NCBI GenBank assembly: GCA_023920165.1
Contig: CP089274.1
Span: 372,001-436,000 of the forward strand
Length of the DNA: 64,000 nucleotides
DNA from: Curvularia clavata
Lineage: Eukaryota
Direction: 5' to 3'
Each line of letters starts with the position of its first letter. The first letter of the stretch is position 1. Positions 12,867 to 25,507 of this stretch are shown one piece after another. The notes below the pieces were generated by a model, which made no database searches, was not told the origin of the DNA, and saw only the letters and a program-made list of their open reading frames with translations. Made by a program: the position numbers and the translations under genes.

Positions 12867-14895
12867 CTAGCTCTTCCGGTTACGACTAGATCCAGATGAC
12901 CTGCACATATTAGTTATTGCACGACAACGCAACCTCCAGCACCACTTACATGCTAATGCGCCTTGCGACAGTGGCAAGGCCCTGGTCGTTCTCGGCCTCC
13001 TTGGTCGCCTTCTCGAGAGCCTGCTCTCGGCTCACCTCCTGGGATTTTCGTACTTCCTCGTGGCTTGGCGGCAGCCTCTCGTTCTGCAAATCAACCTTAC
13101 GTGCATCCTCGAAACTGTGAATGGCCTGCTTGATTCCTTCGGCGCCGAGCATCAGCGTGCCTGCAGGGAGTCGACCACCCGATGCCGTCTTCAACTCCGT
13201 AACCCGCTCAGACTCTTCGCGAAGCACCTGGAATACACGAGAGAGACGTCCAATGGCCAGAATCTTGTTCTTGATAGCGCGACGCTTGAACTCGGTCGAT
13301 TCTGGGTCCAAACTGGACAGCGGGGGTGAGGAGGGACCGGATGCCAGAGAGCTGGGAGTTTCCTCTTCCAGTTCTTCCTTGGAACAAGTGTTCAAGATAG
13401 CAATGAGCATGTCAGTGACTGGATAGGGTTAGTATATACAACTCAAAAGTCAATGGGCTTGGCATACTCTTCTCTCCAACGAATGGCAGCGACCATGTGA
13501 AGACATCCATGAAGTTGGGCAACCAGTATGGGTGCGGTGTGCAGTCTGAATATGTTAGCCTCCTGACACATGACCGAGTGAAACAAGCTTACTGAATTGG
13601 CGAATGTTCATAACATTGTTCTCGTACTTGAGCACAGCAGCCTTGTTATTATACACATCCAGATAGTTGGGCGCACTGAAAATTGTCATGACACTGGGGA
13701 AGCCAGTTGTCCGCGTCTTCCTGTACATTCGGTAGCCAGCATCCTGGGCCTCGTGTGCACGGATAATAGACAAAAGGTTATTCTTTTCGAGGAAAGCGCA
13801 GGCGGCTGGGTATGAAAAGAAGTATGAACATCCGCGAACGTGGTTGTGGACGAAGAAGTCGTTGGTCTTCTCCTGACCAAATTCCTCGAGCGGATCAGCC
13901 CAGAGGATGTCGCACATGAGGCCGTGGGTTGGGGGTTCCCGGAAACGGTCAATCTACAAGGTCAGCTGCGGTACCAGAGACTTGAGAAGTGCTACATACG
14001 CTCTTCAGATCATCCAGCGTGTGGAGCTCGGGGCTCAATCCACCGTGTATACACAGGAATTGCTTGTTCATAACTGCAGCCAGAGGCAGTGCGCAGAAAG
14101 AGTCCATGCATGCCTCGTATACGGCCTCGGAGTACTTGTGCTTGCATTCAAGTTTGAAGGTGAAGTAATCGGTCAAATGGCGGCACTCGTGGTTACCTCG
14201 GAGCAGCCAGAGGGTATTGGGGTACCAGATCTTGAGGGACCAGAGGTACAGAACACACTGCAACTGTCAGCGAACTGCACGTGGCCAACTCGCCCGGCTA
14301 CCTTACCTCTATACTGAAATAGCCACGGTCGACATAGTCACCGAGAAATAGGTAGCGCGTCTCAGCCGGGTCGCCACCGACTTCAAAAAGTTTCATGAGG
14401 TCGTAGTACTGGCCGTGGACATCGCCACAAACAGTGATGGGTGCGTCCATTTCCAGCATGTTTGGCTCCGACTTTAGGATTTCCGTGCCCTTCTTGAGGA
14501 TCCATAGCGCCTGCTGTTCGGTCAAGCGACCTTCACGGTAGAAGTGTTGCTTCAAAAACTGGATGTTGGGCTTGGTGCGATCTTGCGGTGAGAAGAATTG
14601 CTCGTCGCTGGGCGGGTGGAAGGCGGGTGCTTGAACGTCTGCGAGGCACGGAAGCATTAGCTGACTCTCCCGACTGGTGATTGTTGCGGAATGGCTTTTA
14701 ATAGCAAGGCAAGCTAGGCAAAAGTCGTGAAACAGGCATACCTTTGCAGACACGTTCCTGGGTGCTCACTTGGGTGCCATCTTCCATGGTATGGAGAGTG
14801 AAGTCGATCTCGGGGAGGGGCTTCTTCTCCCGCACGGCGCGGATTGCATTGTCGATGTATTTGCTCTGGTCGACATCTTGCTGGTTGTTGTCCAT
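12867..14895 (-). CDS. CNA1: Calcineurin catalytic subunit A (PP2B)
   Basis: [40 protein letters not shown]; CaM-binding [15 protein letters not shown]; autoinhibitory [17 protein letters not shown]; multiple GT-AG introns. Confidence 0.98.
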
Positions 14896-15923
14896 GGTGG
14901 GCGGTCTGTGCTGTTCGCCTTGAAGGGTGAGCGCCAGGAGACGGTGGAGGTGAGGGCAACGAGGTAGTGGGGCGAGCGCAATGACCTCCCAAGCTCGAAT
15001 GGCGGCAACGCGCGAAACCAGGGCCGAGACTCGCTCCTGATTGTGAAGGCCGACACCACGAGATTATCAAACCGCCGTGTCCGTACAGAGTGTCGCAGTC
15101 TGCCTGGTCGCGTGCTTGGGCGTGCGCTGTCGAGAGGAGCCTGGAGCTGAGATTTTGGTTGCAGAGGGGAAGCCCGCTTGTGCTGTCTGTTCCCTGGGCA
15201 GCTGGCCAATCAGCGGCCGAGTAACGTCATAACCGGTGAATAGTCAGTATGTTCTGCGAGTAACAGCAGGAGTGTAGGGCCAATGAATAGGAGATGCAGC
15301 GATGCATGCCTTGCAGACGAGGCGACATGGCAGAGCGCGACGGCCTGCGTTGGTCAGGCATATCTGTCTCATCTAGAAGTCACAATGCAGCGTGCAGGCA
15401 CCCCCTCCCCGGCCTGAATTTGGACTTCTGCCCGCTGGACCCTTGTCTATTGCCAGCCGTTGTTAAGGTTGGCACGAAACGCCAACGAAACAGGCACCAC
15501 GGATTCGACACCACAGAGATTAGGGGACATGTGCAGTAGTTTGCAGATAGAAATGAGCGTTGTCATTGGTTTTTGCACACTCGCGGTGCTATGTATGCTG
15601 CGCTCGTAGGCACGAGACTGACCACAGGACTTCTCTTAATCCTCTAGAAACAAGGCATGCCAGCTGAGCTGAGCATGAACGAAAGAAAGAATACAACAAA
15701 AGTAGAACACAAGAAGAAGAAGAAAAATAAGTCGCAAGCCAGACCCAGGTGGTATCTACCTTGTGTGACCCAATGTGAACACCAAAACCCAAAACCCATC
15801 CTCCCAATCCGTGTATATCATTGTCCGTATCCCCAACTCCAAACGATGCGTTTTCGTACCCGGTGGCTCAATCGGGTAGGCGAGAGCGTCCTAAACACCC
15901 AATAGCTATGCAGCGTATCGCAC

Positions 15924-17141
15924 TTAGATCAAGTGAGAAGCAGAGTGGCGGCGGTGGAGGTGAGCGCGAGGGAAGTGGAGAGATCGCTTCTTGGCCGAGG
16001 CGACAATAGCACCAGAAGAGCAAGACATGCCGGTTGCGAGAGCCTGGGCAACGGCACATCCGTGGTTGCAGAGACCAAACTGGTTGCTGCCAATGCAGAC
16101 AACAGCGCCCTCGTTGGTGCATGGGGTGCAATCGGCGCTGCCAGAAGAGCCAGAGCTGCCAGAGCCAGCAGAAGGCGCCTGGGTGCCGTTGTCAGGCTTG
16201 GTGGAGCCATTGCTAGGGGTCTCTGGGGCAGCAGGCTGAGGGCTGGTAACGGGCTTGGAGGTGATGGGGCTAGGAGTGGGTGTGGCAACTGGGGCAGAGG
16301 AGGCACCAGGGGCGAAGACACCTCCACCGTTGGCGGGGAGAGAGGCATTGCCAGAGCTCTGAGCAGGAGCTTGGCTGGCTGCAGGCGAACCCGACTCACC
16401 CTGAGTGGGGGTTCCAATTTCGCCGTTACCAGCGCCCATCTTGGTAATCTTGTTGCATCCAGAACCAGTCAAGGTGTCGCCGAGCGAGGCACCATTACCC
16501 TCGACAAGGTTCTTGCCAGGGTTGGGATAGTTGAAGTCCTCATTCTCCTTGGTGGAGCACTCAGTAGCGGGCAGGTTGGCAACGAACATGTCTGGTAGGG
16601 ATGAGAGGGCCTGGGAAGCGCTCTTAGTCGAAGCCTTGCCAGTACCACTTCCGACCTGAATTGGTGCGCAGTTCATGTAGAACTCGCGGTTGCCAACCTT
16701 GTTGAGCCATGTCCAAGCGAAGGTGTATTGGCCATCAGGGATGTCTTCTGGCATCTTGACTGGAAATTTTGCAGCACCAGTACCGTCTGGGTTTCCAGGC
16801 AGGTTACCGGAGACATTCGAGGGACATCCTCCAACAACGCTCTCGATGACTTTCCATTGTGAGTTGATGGATGGTTGTTGGTCGGTAGTGATAGAGAACT
16901 GGCATGAACCACCGCCGTGAACTGCAGAGCCTAGGAAAGAGACCTCCTGAGTCTCACCAGCGTTCCATTGGTTCATCTGGGTGATGTCGTACACTCCAGG
17001 GCGTTGTTTGCAAGGGAAATCGGCAGGCTCCAAGGGAGAGCTGTTAAGGGTGTCGAAGCCAAAAGGCTTTGGGTGGGCCATCCTCATGTGGGCGGAGGCA
17101 CTGGCGGCAAGCGCCATGAGCATAGTAGCTTGGGAGAACAT
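15924..17141 (-). CDS. AA11 lytic polysaccharide monooxygenase with low-complexity linker and C-terminal Cys-rich module
   Basis: Signal peptide followed by N-terminal His (HMRM); SAVHGGGSCQ, GGCP, WTWLNKVGNREFYMNCA. P/S/G-rich linker, then CTPC...C...C..GC...C. Confidence 0.92.
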   Translation of the reverse strand: MFSQATMLMALAASASAHMRMAHPKPFGFDTLNSSPLEPADFPCKQRPGVYDITQMNQWNAGETQEVSFLGSAVHGGGSCQFSITTDQQPSINSQWKVIESVVGGCPSNVSGNLPGNPDGTGAAKFPVKMPEDIPDGQYTFAWTWLNKVGNREFYMNCAPIQVGSGTGKASTKSASQALSSLPDMFVANLPATECSTKENEDFNYPNPGKNLVEGNGASLGDTLTGSGCNKITKMGAGNGEIGTPTQGESGSPAASQAPAQSSGNASLPANGGGVFAPGASSAPVATPTPSPITSKPVTSPQPAAPETPSNGSTKPDNGTQAPSAGSGSSGSSGSADCTPCTNEGAVVCIGSNQFGLCNHGCAVAQALATGMSCSSGAIVASAKKRSLHFPRAHLHRRHSASHLI

Positions 17142-18020
17142 TTTGATTTCTGAGAGAATGATGGCGATAAAAGTCTGTTTTCTGTTGGAAATCGCTAGAC
17201 CGGCTGAGCGAAGTAAAGAATGTGGTGACTGTTGTCTGGAATTTGCTGGGTTGATGTGGGGATGAGTGGTAGATGGTTGAGTCTAGCTCTTCAGCAGCGC
17301 GCAGCAATTGTAAAGAATGTGATCTGCCACAGGCAGTATTGCAATGAAGAAGGAAAGGAAGGAAGAGAAGTCTGGTGTTGCTGTGGTAGCTGGTTGTGGA
17401 TGGGGACTTGAGACGAAACGACTGCTGGGTTATATAAGTATACAGACGCCTGGCCACCTGTCTAGGCTCGGGCGGTGGCGGTCGAGGAGAAGAGCGACGA
17501 GTACGGCAGCACTAGCAGCCAGGAGCCACTGGGCCGGCGGATCATCGTCAAAAAGCATAGGCTATTCGATGGAGCAAGGTCTCTGTTGCAACGATGGGCA
17601 TACTTGTTCGGCTAGTTTGCCCCTCGGGGTTTAGCGGCAGGGGTGCGACAGTCGGATAAGTGGTGTAGCCAGCAGCTTCGGGAGCGAGCGACAGGCACGA
17701 AATGGATACCATTGGCCATGGTGTTATGACAAGGCCTTTGTCCATGAAACAAAAAGAGCGGAGAAGGGCTCGGATGGGCAGGTCTTGGTGCACGGCTACG
17801 TCCAGGGGTGCACCATCAGGTTTGAGGTTTGTGCCTGCAGTTTGCCAGATATGCAGGGGCTGGTCGTATCCGTGGCCTATCGATAACGCCAACGCTAGCG
17901 ATAGCGTGGCGTGGCGATCGCTAGCCAAAGCTGAAACGATCCACCACCTCTGCCATGGGCCCTCTCCGCCTCTCCATTGGCCGTTACCCTCACCTCCACG
18001 CACGCAGCACTCACACCCTT

Positions 18021-19708
18021 TTGCTTATCCAGCAGCAAACCACGTAGCACCGCGGCGGCTCTTGGTCGCTAGACACCCTCTACTAACCGCCCTACCTGTG
18101 TAGGCGTACCACAGATTCAACCCCCAACTACTGCCAGTCGGCCGAGTCGCGCGCCATGGCACAGCGACGACGACGCTTCTTTGATTGCAGGCTCGCCCGC
18201 CAGCCGGACCCATCTATGACATACACCCCTCATGCATAGTATCCCTGGTATACGTCTTCATGCGCAGGGTCTTTTTTTGGCTTGCCATAGTGCTCAGCCG
18301 CCTATGCCGTGACGGTCGGCAACGGCAGAGGTCCCTGCCCATGGGCAGTGCGGAGATCTGTGCAAGGTACGCTGCTTTGAATGCTGCTAAACTGGTCCAT
18401 CGGCGAAATGCGAGTACCCATCAGCTTGCTGTTAACACGACTGCGCCACACGGCCGCAGCTTTTGACGTCGGCAAAGGCGAAGCGAAAGGATTCCGATCT
18501 GGCTACCGGCTGTGTGGCTGTAGCTGTGGCCTCGTGGAAACCTGGGTCAGGTGGCCCGCCGGTTGCGACCAGCTGGTCTCGCTACCCGCCGCTCGTCATC
18601 TGCTGGCTGTGGAACGGCGCCGCCGTCTTTTACTCGTCAACAATCGCCGCCCATGATTGGACCTCCATCAACTACACCTTGTTTCACCAAAACGCTCATG
18701 CCCAAGGAACCCACTGGTAAATGACTAGCAAAGAATGACACCTTGCCCGGGCTCTCCTTTCTCCCAAGTTGATCAGTGGAGCCTGGAGAAGGCTCGTAAA
18801 GCTTGGTTTCGGACGCTCCACGAATAACATCCGCTGGCCAATCGACTCTTGGCCGATTTCCCAGGCAGTGACGACGACGGCAATACCTAGAGCGTGAACC
18901 AAAAGCACGGCTGTCACACTGCCTATGAAGACTTTTACGCGCTATCAGTCGCGCCCCTAATCCCTTAGCAGATATGCTTAACAGACAAGCATTGGGTCAT
19001 GACAGCCGAAGGGCAAGCAGCTGCCTTAGTTTTGAGTCACAGTAAACACCAGTGGACCAACACACTCGAGCACAACCACTAGGAACCCTACCGTACCCTC
19101 TACCAGTCCGGTTGAACTCCGGAATCCCTTCGGATCCAGTTCGCGCATACAACCCAAATTATACAAAGGGCCTCCAATAGGCCAACTACGGCAAACGGCA
19201 GATACCTTCGCCATCATGAGAACAGTTCAAGTTCATTTTTTATTCAGATTTTTCAAAGCGCCGTCCTGCTTTTCTTTCGACGCTCGATAACTTTCCACTG
19301 CTTTACTCACGCTTACAAACGACTGCGTTGAGTTTCCCATTGCAGATTTTGTTCTGGGGCTTTTGGGATCTTCGCTTTTTGCCTTGATAGGTGCAAATCT
19401 CCGTATGAGTTTGGTCCGCCAGCAAATAGCATTATGAGCTACACCTCCCTAGTAAAATTAGCATACCATCTGTTTCATACCAATTTATGGGCCTGAGCAA
19501 GTTCTCGCTCGGCCCATCAGTCAATGACAGTGAGTAACTACTGACACGGTTCTCACAATAGCCCCGGACGGCACCCTTTCACACGGTGGGAGAGTTCCCG
19601 GTTCCGTTCCATAGTTCTTTGGGTGTTCTGGATTTCGACAGAAACGCCACACCCCTGCGATGGGCAACCGCTACGTATGTGCTCGAGACTTCAAAACGGA
19701 ATAAGCAA
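18021..19708 (+). ncRNA. Candidate ~1.7-kb multi-domain structured ncRNA; telomerase RNA is one unproven hypothesis
   Basis: No credible CDS. End-to-end helix 18021-18030/19698-19708 encloses several nested helices whose G-U pairs favour the + strand (see findings). Confidence 0.45.
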
Positions 19709-19757
19709 TTTGAATTCTAGATCATCTGGCTGATCGTTCGGCTTCCTAAACAGAGTA

Positions 19758-22700
19758 TCAAACATTCGATCTCCAACGCCAAGAAACAACCTTCTTGTCG
19801 AACCAAGTGGCTTTCGACCTGACTCTCACAAAAGGCGTCTTCTCAATCCCGATATGAACTCTCCCGTCACCACCGCCAATGAAACTTCCATATCCATACC
19901 GTGCGTCCACCTCCTCAAGATGCCGAGCACGACCCCTTTTGTCCAAGTATGATGTCCCTCGCATATCCAGGACTGCTGCACTAGCCGCGAACAGGGCAAT
20001 CAAAGAAGCGATTGATGTGGGCATCCGTGCAAGATATCGGCCTGGTCGACGCATATACACCATGATTGCCACGACGACATAGGTGCATAGAATTGCCTCG
20101 GAGATGATGAACATTGGCGTCGACACAAAGAGACGTGTCTCCGGTTCTATGCGCCAGCCTTCTGATGCCGCTGCGTTCCCGGCCTGGTTTGGCAATAACA
20201 GTTTGTCCTTATTGGTTCCCATCCAAATTGCAAATAGAAGCGAGTAGACCCTACTCAATGGATCTTCTATTTCGCTAAAGCTGGGAACGTCTTGTTTGGG
20301 ATCGATCAAGCGCCTACCATTCGCTGTATGACTGATGAAGTAATTGATGAAGCCGTCGGCGAAAGTGTCGTTGTGCCATGCCTCACTACCAGTCATGAAT
20401 AGGTACCTGTTGGATTGTCCAATGAGATTAATCGGATCGTTGCTGAAAATTCCAGTCGGCATATGGTCATCCAGCGTCATGTTCTCTGCTTTTTTTCGCA
20501 AACGACCACTGGAGTCGACACTGACAGTTGCGAAGCCAGTCGTCAACCTTGGCCGGCAATGAACAAAAACCGCATTTTGCTTGTTCAGTGCCCTCGGTTT
20601 GATCTCGCCGCAGGAGCCATTACGGTCTCGAAGCCATCCCATGACAACTGACCCCATGCATGCTTCCGCGTCGGCCTGGGACGCGTTTGCGGTTGGCCCC
20701 AGAATGAACACAAGCTCCGCGGCACTAGGTCCAGTAACGCAATTACCTTCCTCGGTTGATATTGGTCCTTGCCGCATATATGTTGAGGTTTTAGTACATT
20801 GGACAGATTTTCCAGCGTCAGAGGTGATTGTGATGTTGACTGAAGGTGCAACAGCCTCGACTGTCGGCACCACAGTTATCAGGCCGGCTTGGAATTTCTC
20901 ATCAAATTCGAGGCTGTTACACTCAAGCTTGGCGCCAAAACTCCTTGTCCGACCTTCTACTTCCCGTATGGCTGATGTGGCGTTGGATCCCTCTGCGAAT
21001 AGCGGCAGGTAGAACATCGTCTCGTCGGTCCATGCAGGCAATGGTGTACCCTGTCTGATGTATGAGTCCGCGACCAAGAACTGGTCTTCCCCGTTGCCTC
21101 CCTGGTAAGCACCGGATGCTTGTAGAGAGCCGAAGGATTGATCGCCTAAAGGACCTATAGTGCCGTTGATTGGGACAAATTTGAGATCGTATGGTGGACT
21201 CATGGTTGTTTCTTTTCGCATGTCGATTGTGGTCTGGTTCAAGAGTCCTGCCAGACTTACCGCGAGCAGATTCGCGAGCAAAGCCATTGAGCAAACCGCA
21301 GCAAGAACAAAATGTTTTGCTTTCAAAGCTTTACCGAAGACAAGCTGTGGCGGAAGAGAGCTGTAATCGAGATCGATTGACTTTTTGGCACGTGCGTTAC
21401 ACCCTTGGAGCTCCTCGATTGGTTGCAGCATGCACAGCAACCGATTGAAAAGAACCCATGCTGGTTCGATGAGCGTGGCTATCGCGGTAGGAATATAGTT
21501 CTCAAGAATATTCTGCACGATGGTATTGGATGAAGGGAGAGGGAGACCTGCTTCTGTCAGTACTATGGAGTGCGGAGTCAGACAGTCATGTTTACCTTGT
21601 AATCGAGCCTTGACGAATATCACAGTCAGAACGACTACAAGTCCGACGAAACAACCAACAAGTGGACCTGTCACCCACAAACTAAATTCCTTGGGTCTGA
21701 CAGGCTTCGCGATGTCGGATACTGTGTTGTGGCGCTGTGTTGGAGATGGTGAGTGACTGTCATCGCCGATGACTGCAGGTGAATGAGGCAGCTCAACGAT
21801 ACTGTCTATTGCATCAGCAAAACTTCCAACCTGGCTAATATTGCACGACACCTACCCAATTGAGAACCCATCATCAAGCAGCTTGTATCTTTTTTGAGCA
21901 AGGTGCTTCTCGATATCCTCCACCTTGCAGCAGTCCAATCCTTCTACGTCTGCCAACAAGGGCTCGTTATCAGCGACCATGGACATTATGGCGGCGATTG
22001 TACTTGGATTGGAGCGGAGGTTTTTAGTGCGAGTGACCGAGAGGTATAGGAGCGCAATGGTTGCTACAGATATAACACCAAGAAAGCCCTCAACAATATA
22101 AACGAAGACGGGCTCGACCAAGACAGCTTCTGTTGTGTCTAGTCTGTGTCCCACAACTTTCTCGACAGTGCGAAAATCCTGGTCCAACACATCTCGCATC
22201 GCCCGCGCAAACATCAGTCTGTAACCATCTGCGTACGATTTGCTCAGTACCTTCCAGTCCAGATATTCTTCCAAAGGATGATTGCTGACACTCAAGGCTA
22301 GACCAACCATTGGTTGGACTACTGCAGCACCCTTGGGGCCGCTGCTCAGACTTAAGTTTGTACGTGCAATAGGATCGAAATATTGAGGCGTGGATTTAGA
22401 TGGGAGTAAATCACCCCTCACTTCGTTACCAACCGAAGTGCTGCTCATGAGCTGCTCCAAAAGAGTGGTGTTGAACATGCCATCTTGGAGAGGCTTTTTC
22501 TCGCCGACACGATCAACTTTTATAGGCTGTAGCGTGACTGCATCCACAGTGGCAGTCACATCTTGTTGGTAGTAAGTCGGCCAACAGTAGATTGCCGTAA
22601 CATCCTGAGGGGGGTCTGTATCCTTGGCCTTATTGCGCTGTATCGCGGCATAAAACGTCGAATTACTGGTCTCAGGGCAGGATTGATCCAAAGAGTAATC

Positions 22701-23776
22701 TGCAAAGCCAAATGGGTTCCAATAACCCACGTACATGGCAGTGAATTCCTTGATTCTTAAGACGGCACTATCCCCGTGGGCCTTGTTCAAGCCCATCGTA
22801 AGGTTTCCGTCTAACCCCATTTTGAACGTACATCCATTCGAACTGTTAGCAATAGCCCCAGTGAGAATAGGATTTGGCCCCATGACAGCGGGTTCGCAGT
22901 ACAGATCCACACTGTACATTGTTGTTGGTGCTGTCCAGTTACCATACGGTTTAGAGCTATTGTCAGATTTAGCATCAGGGGTCGGTCGGAAAGGAGCAAG
23001 CGTATAGTTTCGTCCCATATACTGCGTGAGAGTCTCGTTCAGGACCGCAATTCCGTATGTCGACTGAGCAAAGCGCAGAGTGAGCGTCGACGCCTGTTCA
23101 CTAGCAGGCACGAAAGCCGTTGAGCGGTCGAACGGCAGGGTGACATTCCGAGTAATGGATCGTGTAGAGAAGATACCAGCTTGGGTAGGCACCAATCCCC
23201 AGGTAACCAGGACGACTGCAAATGATCCCCAGAAGACAGGCCAGTGTTTATCTCGAGCGGCTTTGATCGGAACCAATGGGAGGAAGTCGAATGGGTATTG
23301 CAGGAGTATCGAATCCTTGCCTAGCGCACCGTTCTCTTTGCTGAGCTGATAGTAGGGCTCCATACGTTTGGTCTCCAGATCTATCCATGCCCAGTACATG
23401 CTGAAGATTACAGCGACGATCGTTGGGAAGTATAAGTAAAGGAATGTTCGACTCAGGGGGAGATCGCTGATTCGTGGGGCGAAGATGATGCCTTGATTCT
23501 GTTGACTCTTGGTAAGTAGAAACTGGACAACGGCGATCAGAGACCAGCAGATCAAGATGGTCAAGATTAGGACCGGTGCGCGTAATGCAGTCGGTTTCCA
23601 TCTTTTGGGAGCTATACATTCATCAGTACCAGCTCTTACTTGGCATGCATAGGATGAGACGTACCTGGATCTTCTGCGCTACCACGTGAGAATATTGACA
23701 CCAAAGCACCCGATTTCTTCGGCCGGGTTGTGTCATTGACACTTGAGTTAGATGCAGGTACAGTATTAGCATCCAT
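19758..23776 (-). CDS. DUF3433-like multi-pass membrane protein with duplicated domain
   Basis: ATG at 23776, intron, then RWKPTALRAPVL. Motifs YLYFPTIVAV, KRMEPYYQLS and a second copy NYIPTAIAT...LQPIEELQ. Introns at ~21805-21856 and ~21548-21596 join the two long ORFs. Confidence 0.85.
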
Positions 23777-24286
23777 GATCAAGATGAAAAGGAAAAGAAA
23801 AGCAATAACCAATCAAACAAAACAACACAATAACAGGAAAATCGCACAGCAAAAATGACGAGAATGAATTCAGGCGTTCTACACGTCGACACAGTAGGTA
23901 CTTAACACCACCTCTGCAGAGCATAAGCGCCCCCAAACCTCGAAGCGCCTGCTGCGGCGCGGTAGTGGATATCATCCAATCATTTAGCGACAACGTTCCC
24001 GATGGGGCCTAGAGCCACATTCTCGGGACGCAACGATTAACGTTATCTGCCCGACATCCAATACGAAGCAGCGACGCTGCGGCAAGTGGGCAGGATGCGG
24101 GTGCGGGTGGCTTTACTTGCGACGGGTACGATGATCCTACCTTGTCTGTAGTCTTGGCTTTACAACTCACAGCCTCGCGATGTCCAAAAATAATGTACAC
24201 AGAATGAAAAGATGTATTTCGCGTGAACGTAATTGAAGAATTAATACACATCCTCATGTTCACCAAATGGTATGAAATCTGATATT

Positions 24287-25507
24287 TTAGCGGAAGGCCC
24301 CGACTTCGCGTCTCCTGTAATATTGTTAGCTATTTTGACGACAAGCGTCCTAAGCGTCCTTACCACCACGTCTTGAAGTCCACCGTCGATACATCAATGC
24401 CCAGGTCCCGCAGTGCGCTGGTATCTAGATGACAGTCGTAAGGCCGGACGGTACCGTCCTTTGGCTCCTCTTCAGGCTTGAAAGGCACCATGTTGTCGAG
24501 TGGCAATCCCATGATGTCTGCAAACATCTGGCAGATCTGCCATTTCGTCATACAGTCTTCTGAGCTGAATTGGAGGACACTAGGGAGTTCACGATCCCTA
24601 AGAAGACATTTAGCAATAGTTCCGTGATCTTCGCGAATGCAAGCTCTTACGCGTTGGCTGGATCCAGATAGAGTTTCGCTATGTCGCGACATACTCTGCC
24701 AACATCTTTGGTGTTTGTGGGATATCGGAGTGCATAATCGTCGACCTGGATTTTAGCTTCGCCTTCGCCAATCTGTTGAGCATTCCATAACTGCGACATG
24801 AGTACGTTGACTGCGCTCTCCTTTGGTTCATCACAAGTTCCATAGAGAACAGGGACTCGAAGAACGACGATCTTGTTCTTTACGTTCGCTTTTTTGGCAA
24901 CGTCGAGAACAGCGAGTTCGCCTTCTAGTTTGGTTTGACCGTAACTAAGGCCGGCCGTCAGTCTCATCTTGAGAGAACCATTGGCAAAGCCTCTCGTGGA
25001 GCAAGCTTGCAAGGTGGGTCGCTTCTAAGAGCTACAACATAAACCGACTTACACATTCGGTGGACTTGGGGCTGCGTCTGCCTTGTAAGGAGCCTCGCCT
25101 GGGCGACCCGAAAAGACATAGTCCGTCGATATGTAAATGAGGAAGATGCCTCGAGCTAAGGTCGCTTCGGCCAATGCCCTACTTGACTCAACATTAAGTT
25201 CTCTTGCCGCTTCTGGATTTTCCGTGCATGAGTCTGGAAAGCGATTTGCAGCACAGTGAACTACGACGCTGGGTTTGATGTCATCGAGCGCTTTTTCAAT
25301 TTCTCCGCGGTCTCGAATGTCGAGTTTGATGATATCGGGCGCAGTCACACGATTCAGACCGGTGCCGACAGATTTCCAGCCATCCAAGAGGAATTCTCGC
25401 TGCACTTGACGTCCAAGCAGACCGCTGGCTTTATAGCAGGGTCAGCCAGCCGTATGGGGCGCGTCAAGGTTGGCTTTACCTCCGGTGATCAATGCTGATT
25501 GTGACAT
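24287..25507 (-). CDS. RmlD-like / methionine adenosyltransferase II beta-like NAD(P)-dependent epimerase-reductase
   Basis: MSQSALITG|ASGLLGRQV Rossmann motif, VVHCAA, YISTDYVF, YGQTKLEGE (YxxxK), LRVPVLYG, RPYDCHLD. Confidence 0.88.

Follow-up and report, generated by a model that had tools for sequence, protein, structure and literature searches.

The 64,000-nucleotide stretch of Curvularia clavata DNA analysed here (contig CP089274.1 of assembly GCA_023920165.1, positions 372,001 to 436,000; hereafter the window, whose own coordinates are used throughout) raises the question of what is made from the DNA between two of its genes, an AA11 lytic polysaccharide monooxygenase (LPMO) gene and a DUF3433 gene. 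The interval concerned, 18021-19708, is flanked on both sides by these minus-strand genes, and a first-pass annotation, made from the sequence alone, had described it as a closed multi-domain RNA, either an atypical telomerase RNA or an undescribed large noncoding RNA. We found that the interval appears to be transcribed as a ~1.65-kb, once-spliced RNA, and that this RNA is very probably neither a telomerase RNA nor a structured RNA; 18021-19708 is probably an ordinary intergenic long noncoding RNA (lncRNA) of the plus strand. With a probability of roughly 60%, we read this once-spliced, ~1.65-kb plus-strand RNA as an RNA polymerase II (Pol II) intergenic lncRNA without a conserved fold that lies over the regulatory DNA of AA11.

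A probable spliced transcript between AA11 and DUF3433

Nine sequencing runs that carry the same organism label (X4-X12) contain 0.47-0.50 of the sampled words of 17300-19760, and the assemblies of four of them, from two studies, were aligned with the window. In three of these four runs (two studies), contigs cover ~17977-19711 with one 85-nt joint, from 18366 to 18452, which is present in one contig each of X8, X9, and X12. The X12 contig spans 17986-19686 (1617 nt); X8 gave a contig over 18145-19711 (1483 nt) and a small piece over 17977-18125, and X9 gave a contig over 18310-19700 (1306 nt) and a small piece over 17985-18230. The fourth run, X4, holds 0.50 of the sampled words and no contig over 17840-19843, which we read as a gap and not as absence. 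No contig covers 15530-17976 or 19712-22926 in the four runs, which is not informative on whether AA11 and DUF3433 are silent. Because the same assemblies skip CT..AC introns in minus-strand neighbours, at 14638/14742 and 23611/23665, they behave as complementary DNA, and we infer that the sequencing runs are RNA. The strain from which they derive differs from the window at 33 of 1235 and 9 of 381 positions. The parts of the transcript are as follows.

17977-18366, plus strand (presumed): exon 1; contig starts at 17977 (X8), 17985 (X9), and 17986 (X12), the 5' end being approximate
18367-18451, plus strand: skipped segment of 85 nt, presumed intron; joint in three of four runs, GT..AC ends
18452-19711, plus strand: exon 2; contig ends at 19686 (X12), 19700 (X9), and 19711 (X8), the 3' end being approximate
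19700-19705, plus strand: AATAAG, possible poly(A) signal at the contig ends, its role presumed; overlaps the ATAAGC of the first-pass annotation

The three long contigs, from runs presumed to be RNA, are all longer than the 200 nt that an lncRNA has to exceed. As regards the cap, poly(A) tail, and splicing that would mark a Pol II lncRNA, what the sequences offer is one intron-sized joint, with a GT donor but, in the window strain, an AC end, and a possible poly(A) signal, AATAAG, at the 3' end. The starts of the contigs scatter over no more than 10 nt, and their ends over no more than 25 nt. Since the long contigs are fully aligned and have no loose ends, and since the DNA runs X1 and X2 contain all sampled words of 17300-19760, there is a weak hint that ~17977 and ~19711 are real transcript ends.

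The same ends bear on whether the RNA instead belongs to the minus-strand DUF3433 mRNA, as a long 3' untranslated region (UTR) or as a tail made by read-through. Although no more than 47-72 nt separate the contig ends from the DUF3433 stop codon, and the same runs contain the 5' part of DUF3433 (22927-23845), all three long contigs stop at 19686-19711, and none enters the coding sequence (CDS) or leaves a loose end there. A 1.7-kb, intron-bearing 3' UTR would moreover be unusual in fungal gene structure, and we consider this origin highly improbable.

The RNA is probably on the plus strand, to judge from its sequence, because this strand offers the donor AAG/GTACGC, a TTAAC branch-like site 15-16 nt before the end of the skipped segment, and at 19700 the sole plus-strand AATAA[AG] in 17145-19757. 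Read on the minus strand, the donor would be GTGTGG, without a branch-like site near the end, and the only minus-strand AATAA[AG] is at 19244. The window reads AC, not AG, at 18450-51, and the next AG is at 18458-59; splicing in the window strain would therefore shift to this AG, giving a 93-nt splice.

Possible, with a distinctly smaller chance, is the same noncoding RNA on the minus strand, as an upstream sense transcript running from ~19711 to ~17977 toward AA11. Such an RNA would end ~540 nt before the AA11 TATA box and act by promoter interference or chromatin opening. It would have to start 47 nt behind the DUF3433 stop codon, in unconserved DNA with no visible promoter, use the GTGTGG donor with no CTAAC-like branch near the 3' end, and finish far from the AATAA[AG] at 19244, which is not near 17977. 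GT..AC reads alike on both strands, however, and the contigs are unstranded; all conserved CCAAT boxes are in AA11 orientation; and the minus strand folds lower than the plus strand, with a minimum free energy (MFE) of -629.5 kcal/mol (z = -1.71, 1 of 44 shuffles as low). Upstream sense lncRNAs are also described beside regulated fungal genes, as in the reports on carP (PMC6971296) and lncRsp1 (PMC8743023).

Conserved noncoding DNA upstream of AA11

The AA11 protein, used as the query in a metagenome scan, returned 80 loci; the DUF3433 protein returned no relatives. The order DUF3433, an interval of 2.5-3.55 kb, and AA11, all on one strand, is kept in L006/L007, L009/L010, L011, L013, L016, and L021. 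After duplicate removal there are eight distinct relatives, or nine sequences with the window: clade A (L009, L007, L012, and L011, which are 84-88% alike in the interval), L016 alone, and clade B (L013, L021, and L023). The first-pass annotation had proposed aligning the syntenic AA11-DUF3433 interval across relatives; the relatives were found, and alignment was possible over one part of it only.

17145-18826, no strand: conserved noncoding block upstream of the AA11 start codon; 64-66% identity by blastn against clade A

In the blastn comparison, the window and clade A are colinear from 17151 to 18811-18826, with nothing beyond. Conservation is unbroken from the AA11 ATG to 18826 and stops there sharply in deep and shallow comparisons alike, and the distal 850 nt of the block extend over exon 1 and the presumed intron into exon 2. 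Identity to the window per 50-nt bin is 0.7-0.84 in most of 17195-17944 and 0.35-0.73 in 17977-18830. Within clade A, identity is 0.89 in the first 150 nt of the interval, 0.92-0.96 at interval positions 150-899, and 0.72-0.97 up to ~1650 nt, apart from one bin of 0.58 that reflects a deletion in L011; beyond the block it falls to 0.3-0.58. In AA11 itself, codons 1-230 give for these species pairs 0.86-0.88 at codon positions 1+2 and 0.52-0.54 at position 3. By this comparison, 17145-18826 appears to be under stronger constraint than the AA11 CDS. For the 3' half of the transcript (18827-19711), no alignment was possible even among close relatives inside one genus-level clade, and this half appears not to be constrained at all.

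Fourteen blocks of at least 6 nt are invariant in all nine sequences, including TATATA, ATTGGC, and TGAAAC/GTTTCA. The candidate sites in the conserved block are listed here.

17431-17437, minus strand: TATA box, reading TATATAA on either strand and lying ~290 nt ahead of the AA11 ATG; TATATA invariant in nine of nine sequences
17711-17715, minus strand: CCAAT box 1, in AA11 orientation; ATTGGC invariant in nine of nine
17976-17980, minus strand: CCAAT box 2, at the 5' edge of the transcript; ATTGG in six of nine, ATTCG in the three clade B sequences
18656-18660, minus strand: CCAAT box 3, inside exon 2; ATTGG identical in nine of nine
17745-17750, plus strand: TGAAAC motif, here TGAAACA (Ste12-type element); invariant in nine of nine
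17932-17937, plus strand: TGAAAC motif within CTGAAACG, all of which is invariant in nine of nine
18681-18686, minus strand: TGAAAC motif inverted (GTTTCA), inside exon 2; invariant in nine of nine

All three TGAAAC and all three CCAAT sites of 17145-18830 fall in conserved positions, with one TGAAAC inverted. TGAAACA is the Ste12 element, and Cytospora chrysosperma CcSte12 is described as binding an LPMO (GH61) promoter through TGAAACA (PMC10789715). Because the motif is kept in both orientations with variable spacers, these are more readily understood as sites at the DNA level than as RNA sequence. With its short invariant motifs, variable and indel-bearing spacers, use of both orientations, and known types of factor site, the conserved block looks like cis-regulatory DNA, a promoter plus enhancer of AA11 with candidate factor sites.

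The ~800 nt directly upstream of the AA11 ATG (17145-17950) are noncoding by indel and periodicity tests and include 12 of the 14 blocks that are invariant, AGGCTATTCGA (17559) and CCTATCGATA (17876) among them. The starts of two metagenome contigs (L001:1-253 and L005:1-243) are homologous to window 17383-17385, ~240-250 nt ahead of the AA11 ATG and 46-55 nt away from the conserved TATA element; these contigs may be assembled transcripts, in which case they would show where the AA11 mRNA begins. A 9-bp inverted repeat with a 14-nt spacer, GCTAGCGAT / ATCGCTAGC, lies at 17894-17925, shortly before the lncRNA begins, and its arms are not palindromic in relatives. Within exon 1, ATTGCAGG at 18184-18191 is invariant in nine of nine sequences and has the plus-strand form of a 3' splice acceptor, yet the RNA contigs read through it; it may be a factor site. 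A transposon or repeat origin of the region was rejected, since blastn of 17283-19757 against the window returned the self match and three chance matches of 15-18 nt.

Under the reading that we favour, low-level Pol II transcription would start at ~17977, where the strongly conserved DNA upstream of AA11 has its distal edge. The transcript would run along the plus strand, away from AA11, be spliced once, and end at a poly(A) site just after the AATAAG at 19700, converging on the 3' end of DUF3433. Its first ~850 nt would overlie the distal conserved block, which would be conserved at the DNA level. The RNA may then arise as a by-product of this regulatory DNA, or it may act in cis; if it does, the act of transcription through the distal AA11 elements (17977-18826) would modulate their use. 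What the data show directly are the contigs, their joint, the want of a conserved ORF or a structure signal, and the pattern of conservation; the plus strand, the poly(A) site, and an influence on AA11, if there is one, are our inference.

Several observations weigh against this reading. The runs are only guessed to be RNA, and their contigs carry no strand. The skipped segment has GT..AC ends, which are non-canonical and the same on both strands; it may be an 85-bp deletion in the other strain instead of an intron, and its GT donor is not kept in relatives, with GGTTCAT in clade A and GAACGG in L016. A CCAAT box at 17976-17980 lies on top of the proposed start, which is odd for a start site, and the minus-strand fold (z = -1.71, 1 of 44) is not fully null. 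The distal 850 nt could also be conserved for the sake of the RNA, as sequence conservation cannot separate RNA use from DNA use.

There is a further reading, in which the conserved 5' half acts as RNA, and the block and its RNA form one functional unit that switches a chitin-active LPMO in development or host contact. Examples of how it might do so are tethering or titrating Ste12- or CCAAT-complex factors, or guiding chromatin state. We regard this as doubtful; if true, it would give a deeply conserved regulatory lncRNA in filamentous fungi, of which very few are known.

Coding potential, folding, and the telomerase RNA question

The first-pass annotation saw no credible open reading frame (ORF) in the interval, and this was borne out: the longest ATG ORF is 91 aa in the unspliced and 103 aa in the spliced sequence, with no Pfam match and no homologue. 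Pfam gave no match for any of the five ORFs inside the interval, and a search of 5.8 billion protein clusters gave no homologue of the 91-aa unspliced frame among proteins of 50-160 aa. Variable sites in the aligned block lack 3-base periodicity. Indels are mostly of 1-2 nt; relative to L009, there are 17 in 17145-17950 (four of them multiples of three) and 25 in 17951-18830 (six multiples of three).

The 103-aa spliced frame starts at ATG 18260 and is shortened to 37 aa by the 93-nt splice; its product would be rich in Arg, Leu, and Ala. As read from the sequence, three ATGs of the RNA precede this one, and the earliest, at 18156, leads into an ORF of 27 aa. The RNA might be an mRNA for a small protein or micropeptide, either this frame or a short conserved peptide starting MR[KRN]VF, and in keeping with that ATG 18260 is retained in seven of nine sequences, the start is hydrophobic, and the first 5-7 residues are alike (MRRVFFW, MRKVFFW). 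From the aligned ATG, however, the ORF ends at 11 aa in three relatives (L009, L007, and L012) and at 19 aa in L011, and extends to 54 aa in L013 and 31 aa in L023; L011 and L013 shift frame inside a T-run, and the start codon is lost in two of the eight relatives (L016 and L021). Together with the position at the fourth ATG and the want of homologue, Pfam match, and codon periodicity, this makes a coding function unlikely. The transcript appears to have no conserved protein-coding frame, as expected of an lncRNA.

The closed multi-domain fold had been drawn from eight pairs of inverted-repeat arms. All eight are present in the sequence (six exact, two with one G-U position, the closing pair with a one-base bulge), and a check from coordinates agrees that the helices nest. 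Exact inverted k-mers were counted in 18021-19708 and in 300 dinucleotide shuffles of it. There are 89 inverted 7-mers as against 87.1 ± 12.4 in shuffles (130 of 300 shuffles reach the observed number), 15 8-mers against 21.8 ± 6.4 (261 of 300), three 9-mers against 5.6 (249 of 300), and one 10-mer against 1.45 (202 of 300). The longest exact inverted repeat is 10 bp, and 202 of 300 shuffles hold one of at least 10 bp. The nested inverted repeats are thus at chance level; picked by hand from 1.7 kb of GC-rich DNA, they are what chance would supply and should not be read as an RNA fold.

Folding of the single sequence was likewise no better than that of dinucleotide shuffles. The plus strand has an MFE of -539.9 kcal/mol, compared with -530.5 ± 8.0 in 45 shuffles (z = -1.18, 5 of 45 as low), and sliding 150-nt windows in the transcript (n = 21) have a mean z of +0.22 on the plus and -0.12 on the minus strand. 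The claim that G-U pairs favour the plus strand is wrong overall: the plus strand is C-rich (C 506, G 396), so G-U pairing helps the minus strand, which folds lower. Two of the eight helices are present in the MFE structure, namely, the closing helix (9 of 10 pairs) and 19487/19511 (7 of 7), and the other six have no pairs in it. Because the skipped segment 18367-18451 contains the arm 18382-88 and 7 of the 12 nt of the arm 18445-56, two helices are impossible in the spliced RNA. Among the listed strain differences, 20 lie inside the transcript and none in the helix arms, where ~1.6 would be expected; this is uninformative.

Conserved structure was sought in the nine aligned sequences. RNAalifold over 977 columns (17977-18830) gave -31.5 kcal/mol in total, with a covariation term of -1.24 and no consensus structure. 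For the two helices that lie in alignable sequence, 57.0% of cells are paired as against 55.1% in shuffles (33 of 500 shuffles as high), and the covariation score is 0.053 as against 0.055 (411 of 500 as high); the two helices are not kept. A GCCACA/TGTGGC pairing can be read in five of nine sequences if the 3' arm is shifted by eye, but it shows no covariation, and the other four sequences have a deletion of the 3' arm. Sliding RNAalifold over the whole block gave 0 to -12.5 kcal/mol per 160 columns; absolute energies are given as the z-scores were unusable, many shuffles folding to ~0 with near-zero spread. No conserved covarying helix was found in the alignment, and the transcript appears to lack conserved secondary structure.

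A large structured noncoding RNA with a closed multi-domain fold is therefore very unlikely. The closing helix and the 19487/19511 hairpin in the MFE, and the realigned GCCACA/TGTGGC pairing, speak for it; they are set against chance-level repeats, a whole-region z of -1.18 with sliding windows averaging about zero, the want of consensus structure and covariation, six absent helices, two helices that lose an arm to the skipped segment, and a 3' half, holding five of the eight helices, that cannot be aligned within a single genus-level clade. The suggestion of an undescribed large noncoding RNA survives in a weak sense, as there is an ORF-poor transcript of ~1.65 kb over almost exactly this interval. 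The multi-domain fold on which it was based fails refuting conditions set out in the first-pass annotation itself, with folding that does not beat shuffles and with no conserved or covarying helix in the nine aligned sequences.

The telomerase RNAs of Pezizomycotina offer a direct comparison. That of Neurospora crassa is 2049 nt long with a 9-nt template complementary to more than one telomere repeat, and the template-pseudoknot and P6/P6.1 three-way-junction domains are described as conserved across Pezizomycotina telomerase RNAs (PMC3592445). In Aspergillus, an AUA(A/C)GU 5' splice site is reported to form the 3' end of the telomerase RNA; a pyrimidine-rich Sm-like site lies ahead of it, and the branch and 3' splice sites come after it (PMC4299874). 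The likeness of our transcript to these RNAs is that of a long, ORF-less Pol II transcript with a sequence one base off AUA(A/C)GU at its 3' end: the size of ~1.65 kb and the absence of an ORF fit, ATAAGC is indeed present at 19701-06, and one contig ends at 19700. It differs in having no TTAGGG-type template, no core domain matched in Rfam, no Sm-like site, and no 3' conservation.

That there is no canonical template was confirmed, with no exact 8-mer of (CCCTAA)n on either strand of 17950-19760, where the best template matches are 9-mers with one mismatch at 17986, 18955, and 19084. None of 10 syntenic intervals holds a same-strand TTAGGG-type template of at least 8 nt, and L009 has one opposite-strand 8-mer; this test assumes TTAGGG telomeres. 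At gathering score Rfam matched nothing anywhere in the window, and at the looser limit of E <= 10 it gave no telomerase-like match in 15000-23000; this check had no positive control, and the fungal telomerase models of Rfam 15 were unverified. The two Rfam 15 matches at E <= 10 in 15000-23000 are at chance level, and both are on the minus strand. A small nucleolar RNA in the 85-nt skipped segment was also considered and rejected, as no C or D box was visible by eye and Rfam had no match.

ATAAGC, the motif offered as a telomerase RNA 3' end, ends in C and not U, and the 20 nt before it, GAGACTTCAAAACGGA, are purine-rich and not a pyrimidine-rich Sm-like site. It sits in sequence that is unalignable in relatives, whereas the core domains of Pezizomycotina telomerase RNAs are described as conserved (PMC3592445), and it overlaps AATAAG, the simpler reading of which is likely a poly(A) signal. 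With no template, no Rfam match, no Sm-like site, and an unconserved 3' end, the proposal of an atypical telomerase RNA is not supported, and we give it the least credence of all the explanations considered.

Known fungal lncRNAs and the surrounding genes

In a literature search that covered fungal lncRNAs near cellulase-type genes, telomerase RNA, and the Ste12 motif, two Fusarium lncRNAs are the nearest described cases. carP is reported as a poorly transcribed lncRNA of ~1 kb upstream of carS, 75-80% identical between species, with short indels and no shared ORF (PMC6971296). The sequence of 17977-18826 is similar in being alignable with an indel-broken ORF. In the account given, carP is on the same strand as its target and proven by deletion, whereas the RNA described here, known from sequence and contigs, probably runs away from AA11, and only its 5' half is conserved, with DNA motifs that are independent of orientation. 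lncRsp1 of Fusarium graminearum is described as lying upstream of Fgsp1, in the same direction and 99 bp away, and as affecting expression of its neighbour on genetic evidence (PMC8743023). Both are lncRNAs that adjoin a gene; here the distance to the AA11 ATG is ~830 nt and the arrangement is probably divergent, as read from sequence and contigs.

Most of the divergent or promoter-upstream transcripts of yeasts, and of their upstream interfering lncRNAs (for instance, SRG1-SER3 and the RNAs upstream of fbp1), are short and not spliced. They resemble the present case as low-level or unstable RNAs made from, or through, the regulatory region of a neighbour, and the act of transcription may matter more than the sequence, which would fit the unconserved 3' half of our transcript. 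They differ from it in that the transcript here is ~1.65 kb long, spliced, and has reproducible ends in two studies.

The analysis thus yields a reproducible spliced lncRNA between the AA11 LPMO and DUF3433 genes, and, upstream of AA11, 1.7 kb of noncoding DNA that is conserved to an unusual degree and carries candidate Ste12-type and CCAAT sites. If the RNA acts on AA11, it would be a conserved addition to the short list of functional fungal lncRNAs and a handle on the regulation of chitin-active LPMOs. The two flanking genes were assigned as follows.

15927-17144, minus strand: AA11 LPMO gene, left neighbour; match to PDB 4mah_A, E = 4.8e-65
19758-21851, minus strand: 3' ORF of the DUF3433 gene, right neighbour; Pfam PF11915, E = 6.7e-20

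The AA11 protein starts with a signal peptide followed by HMRM, with an N-terminal His, and its residue 19 aligns with residue 1 of the 4mah_A chain. The DUF3433 stop codon is at 19758-19760. On the minus strand, the DUF3433 ORFs 21852-23678 and 19758-21851 adjoin in one frame, with a stop codon at 21852-21854 between them; both halves are encoded colinearly in relatives, and the stop in the window may be intronic, or the gene may be broken in this strain.

Elsewhere in the window, contigs of the runs X4 and X9 carry 47 other letters in place of 97 nt at 24265-24363, with AA..TA ends, which is a strain difference and not an intron. A minus-strand gene in 14500-15530, with a 103-nt intron at 14639-14741 (CT..AC), is covered in all four runs, and the word depth of its contigs is far above that of the lncRNA contigs.

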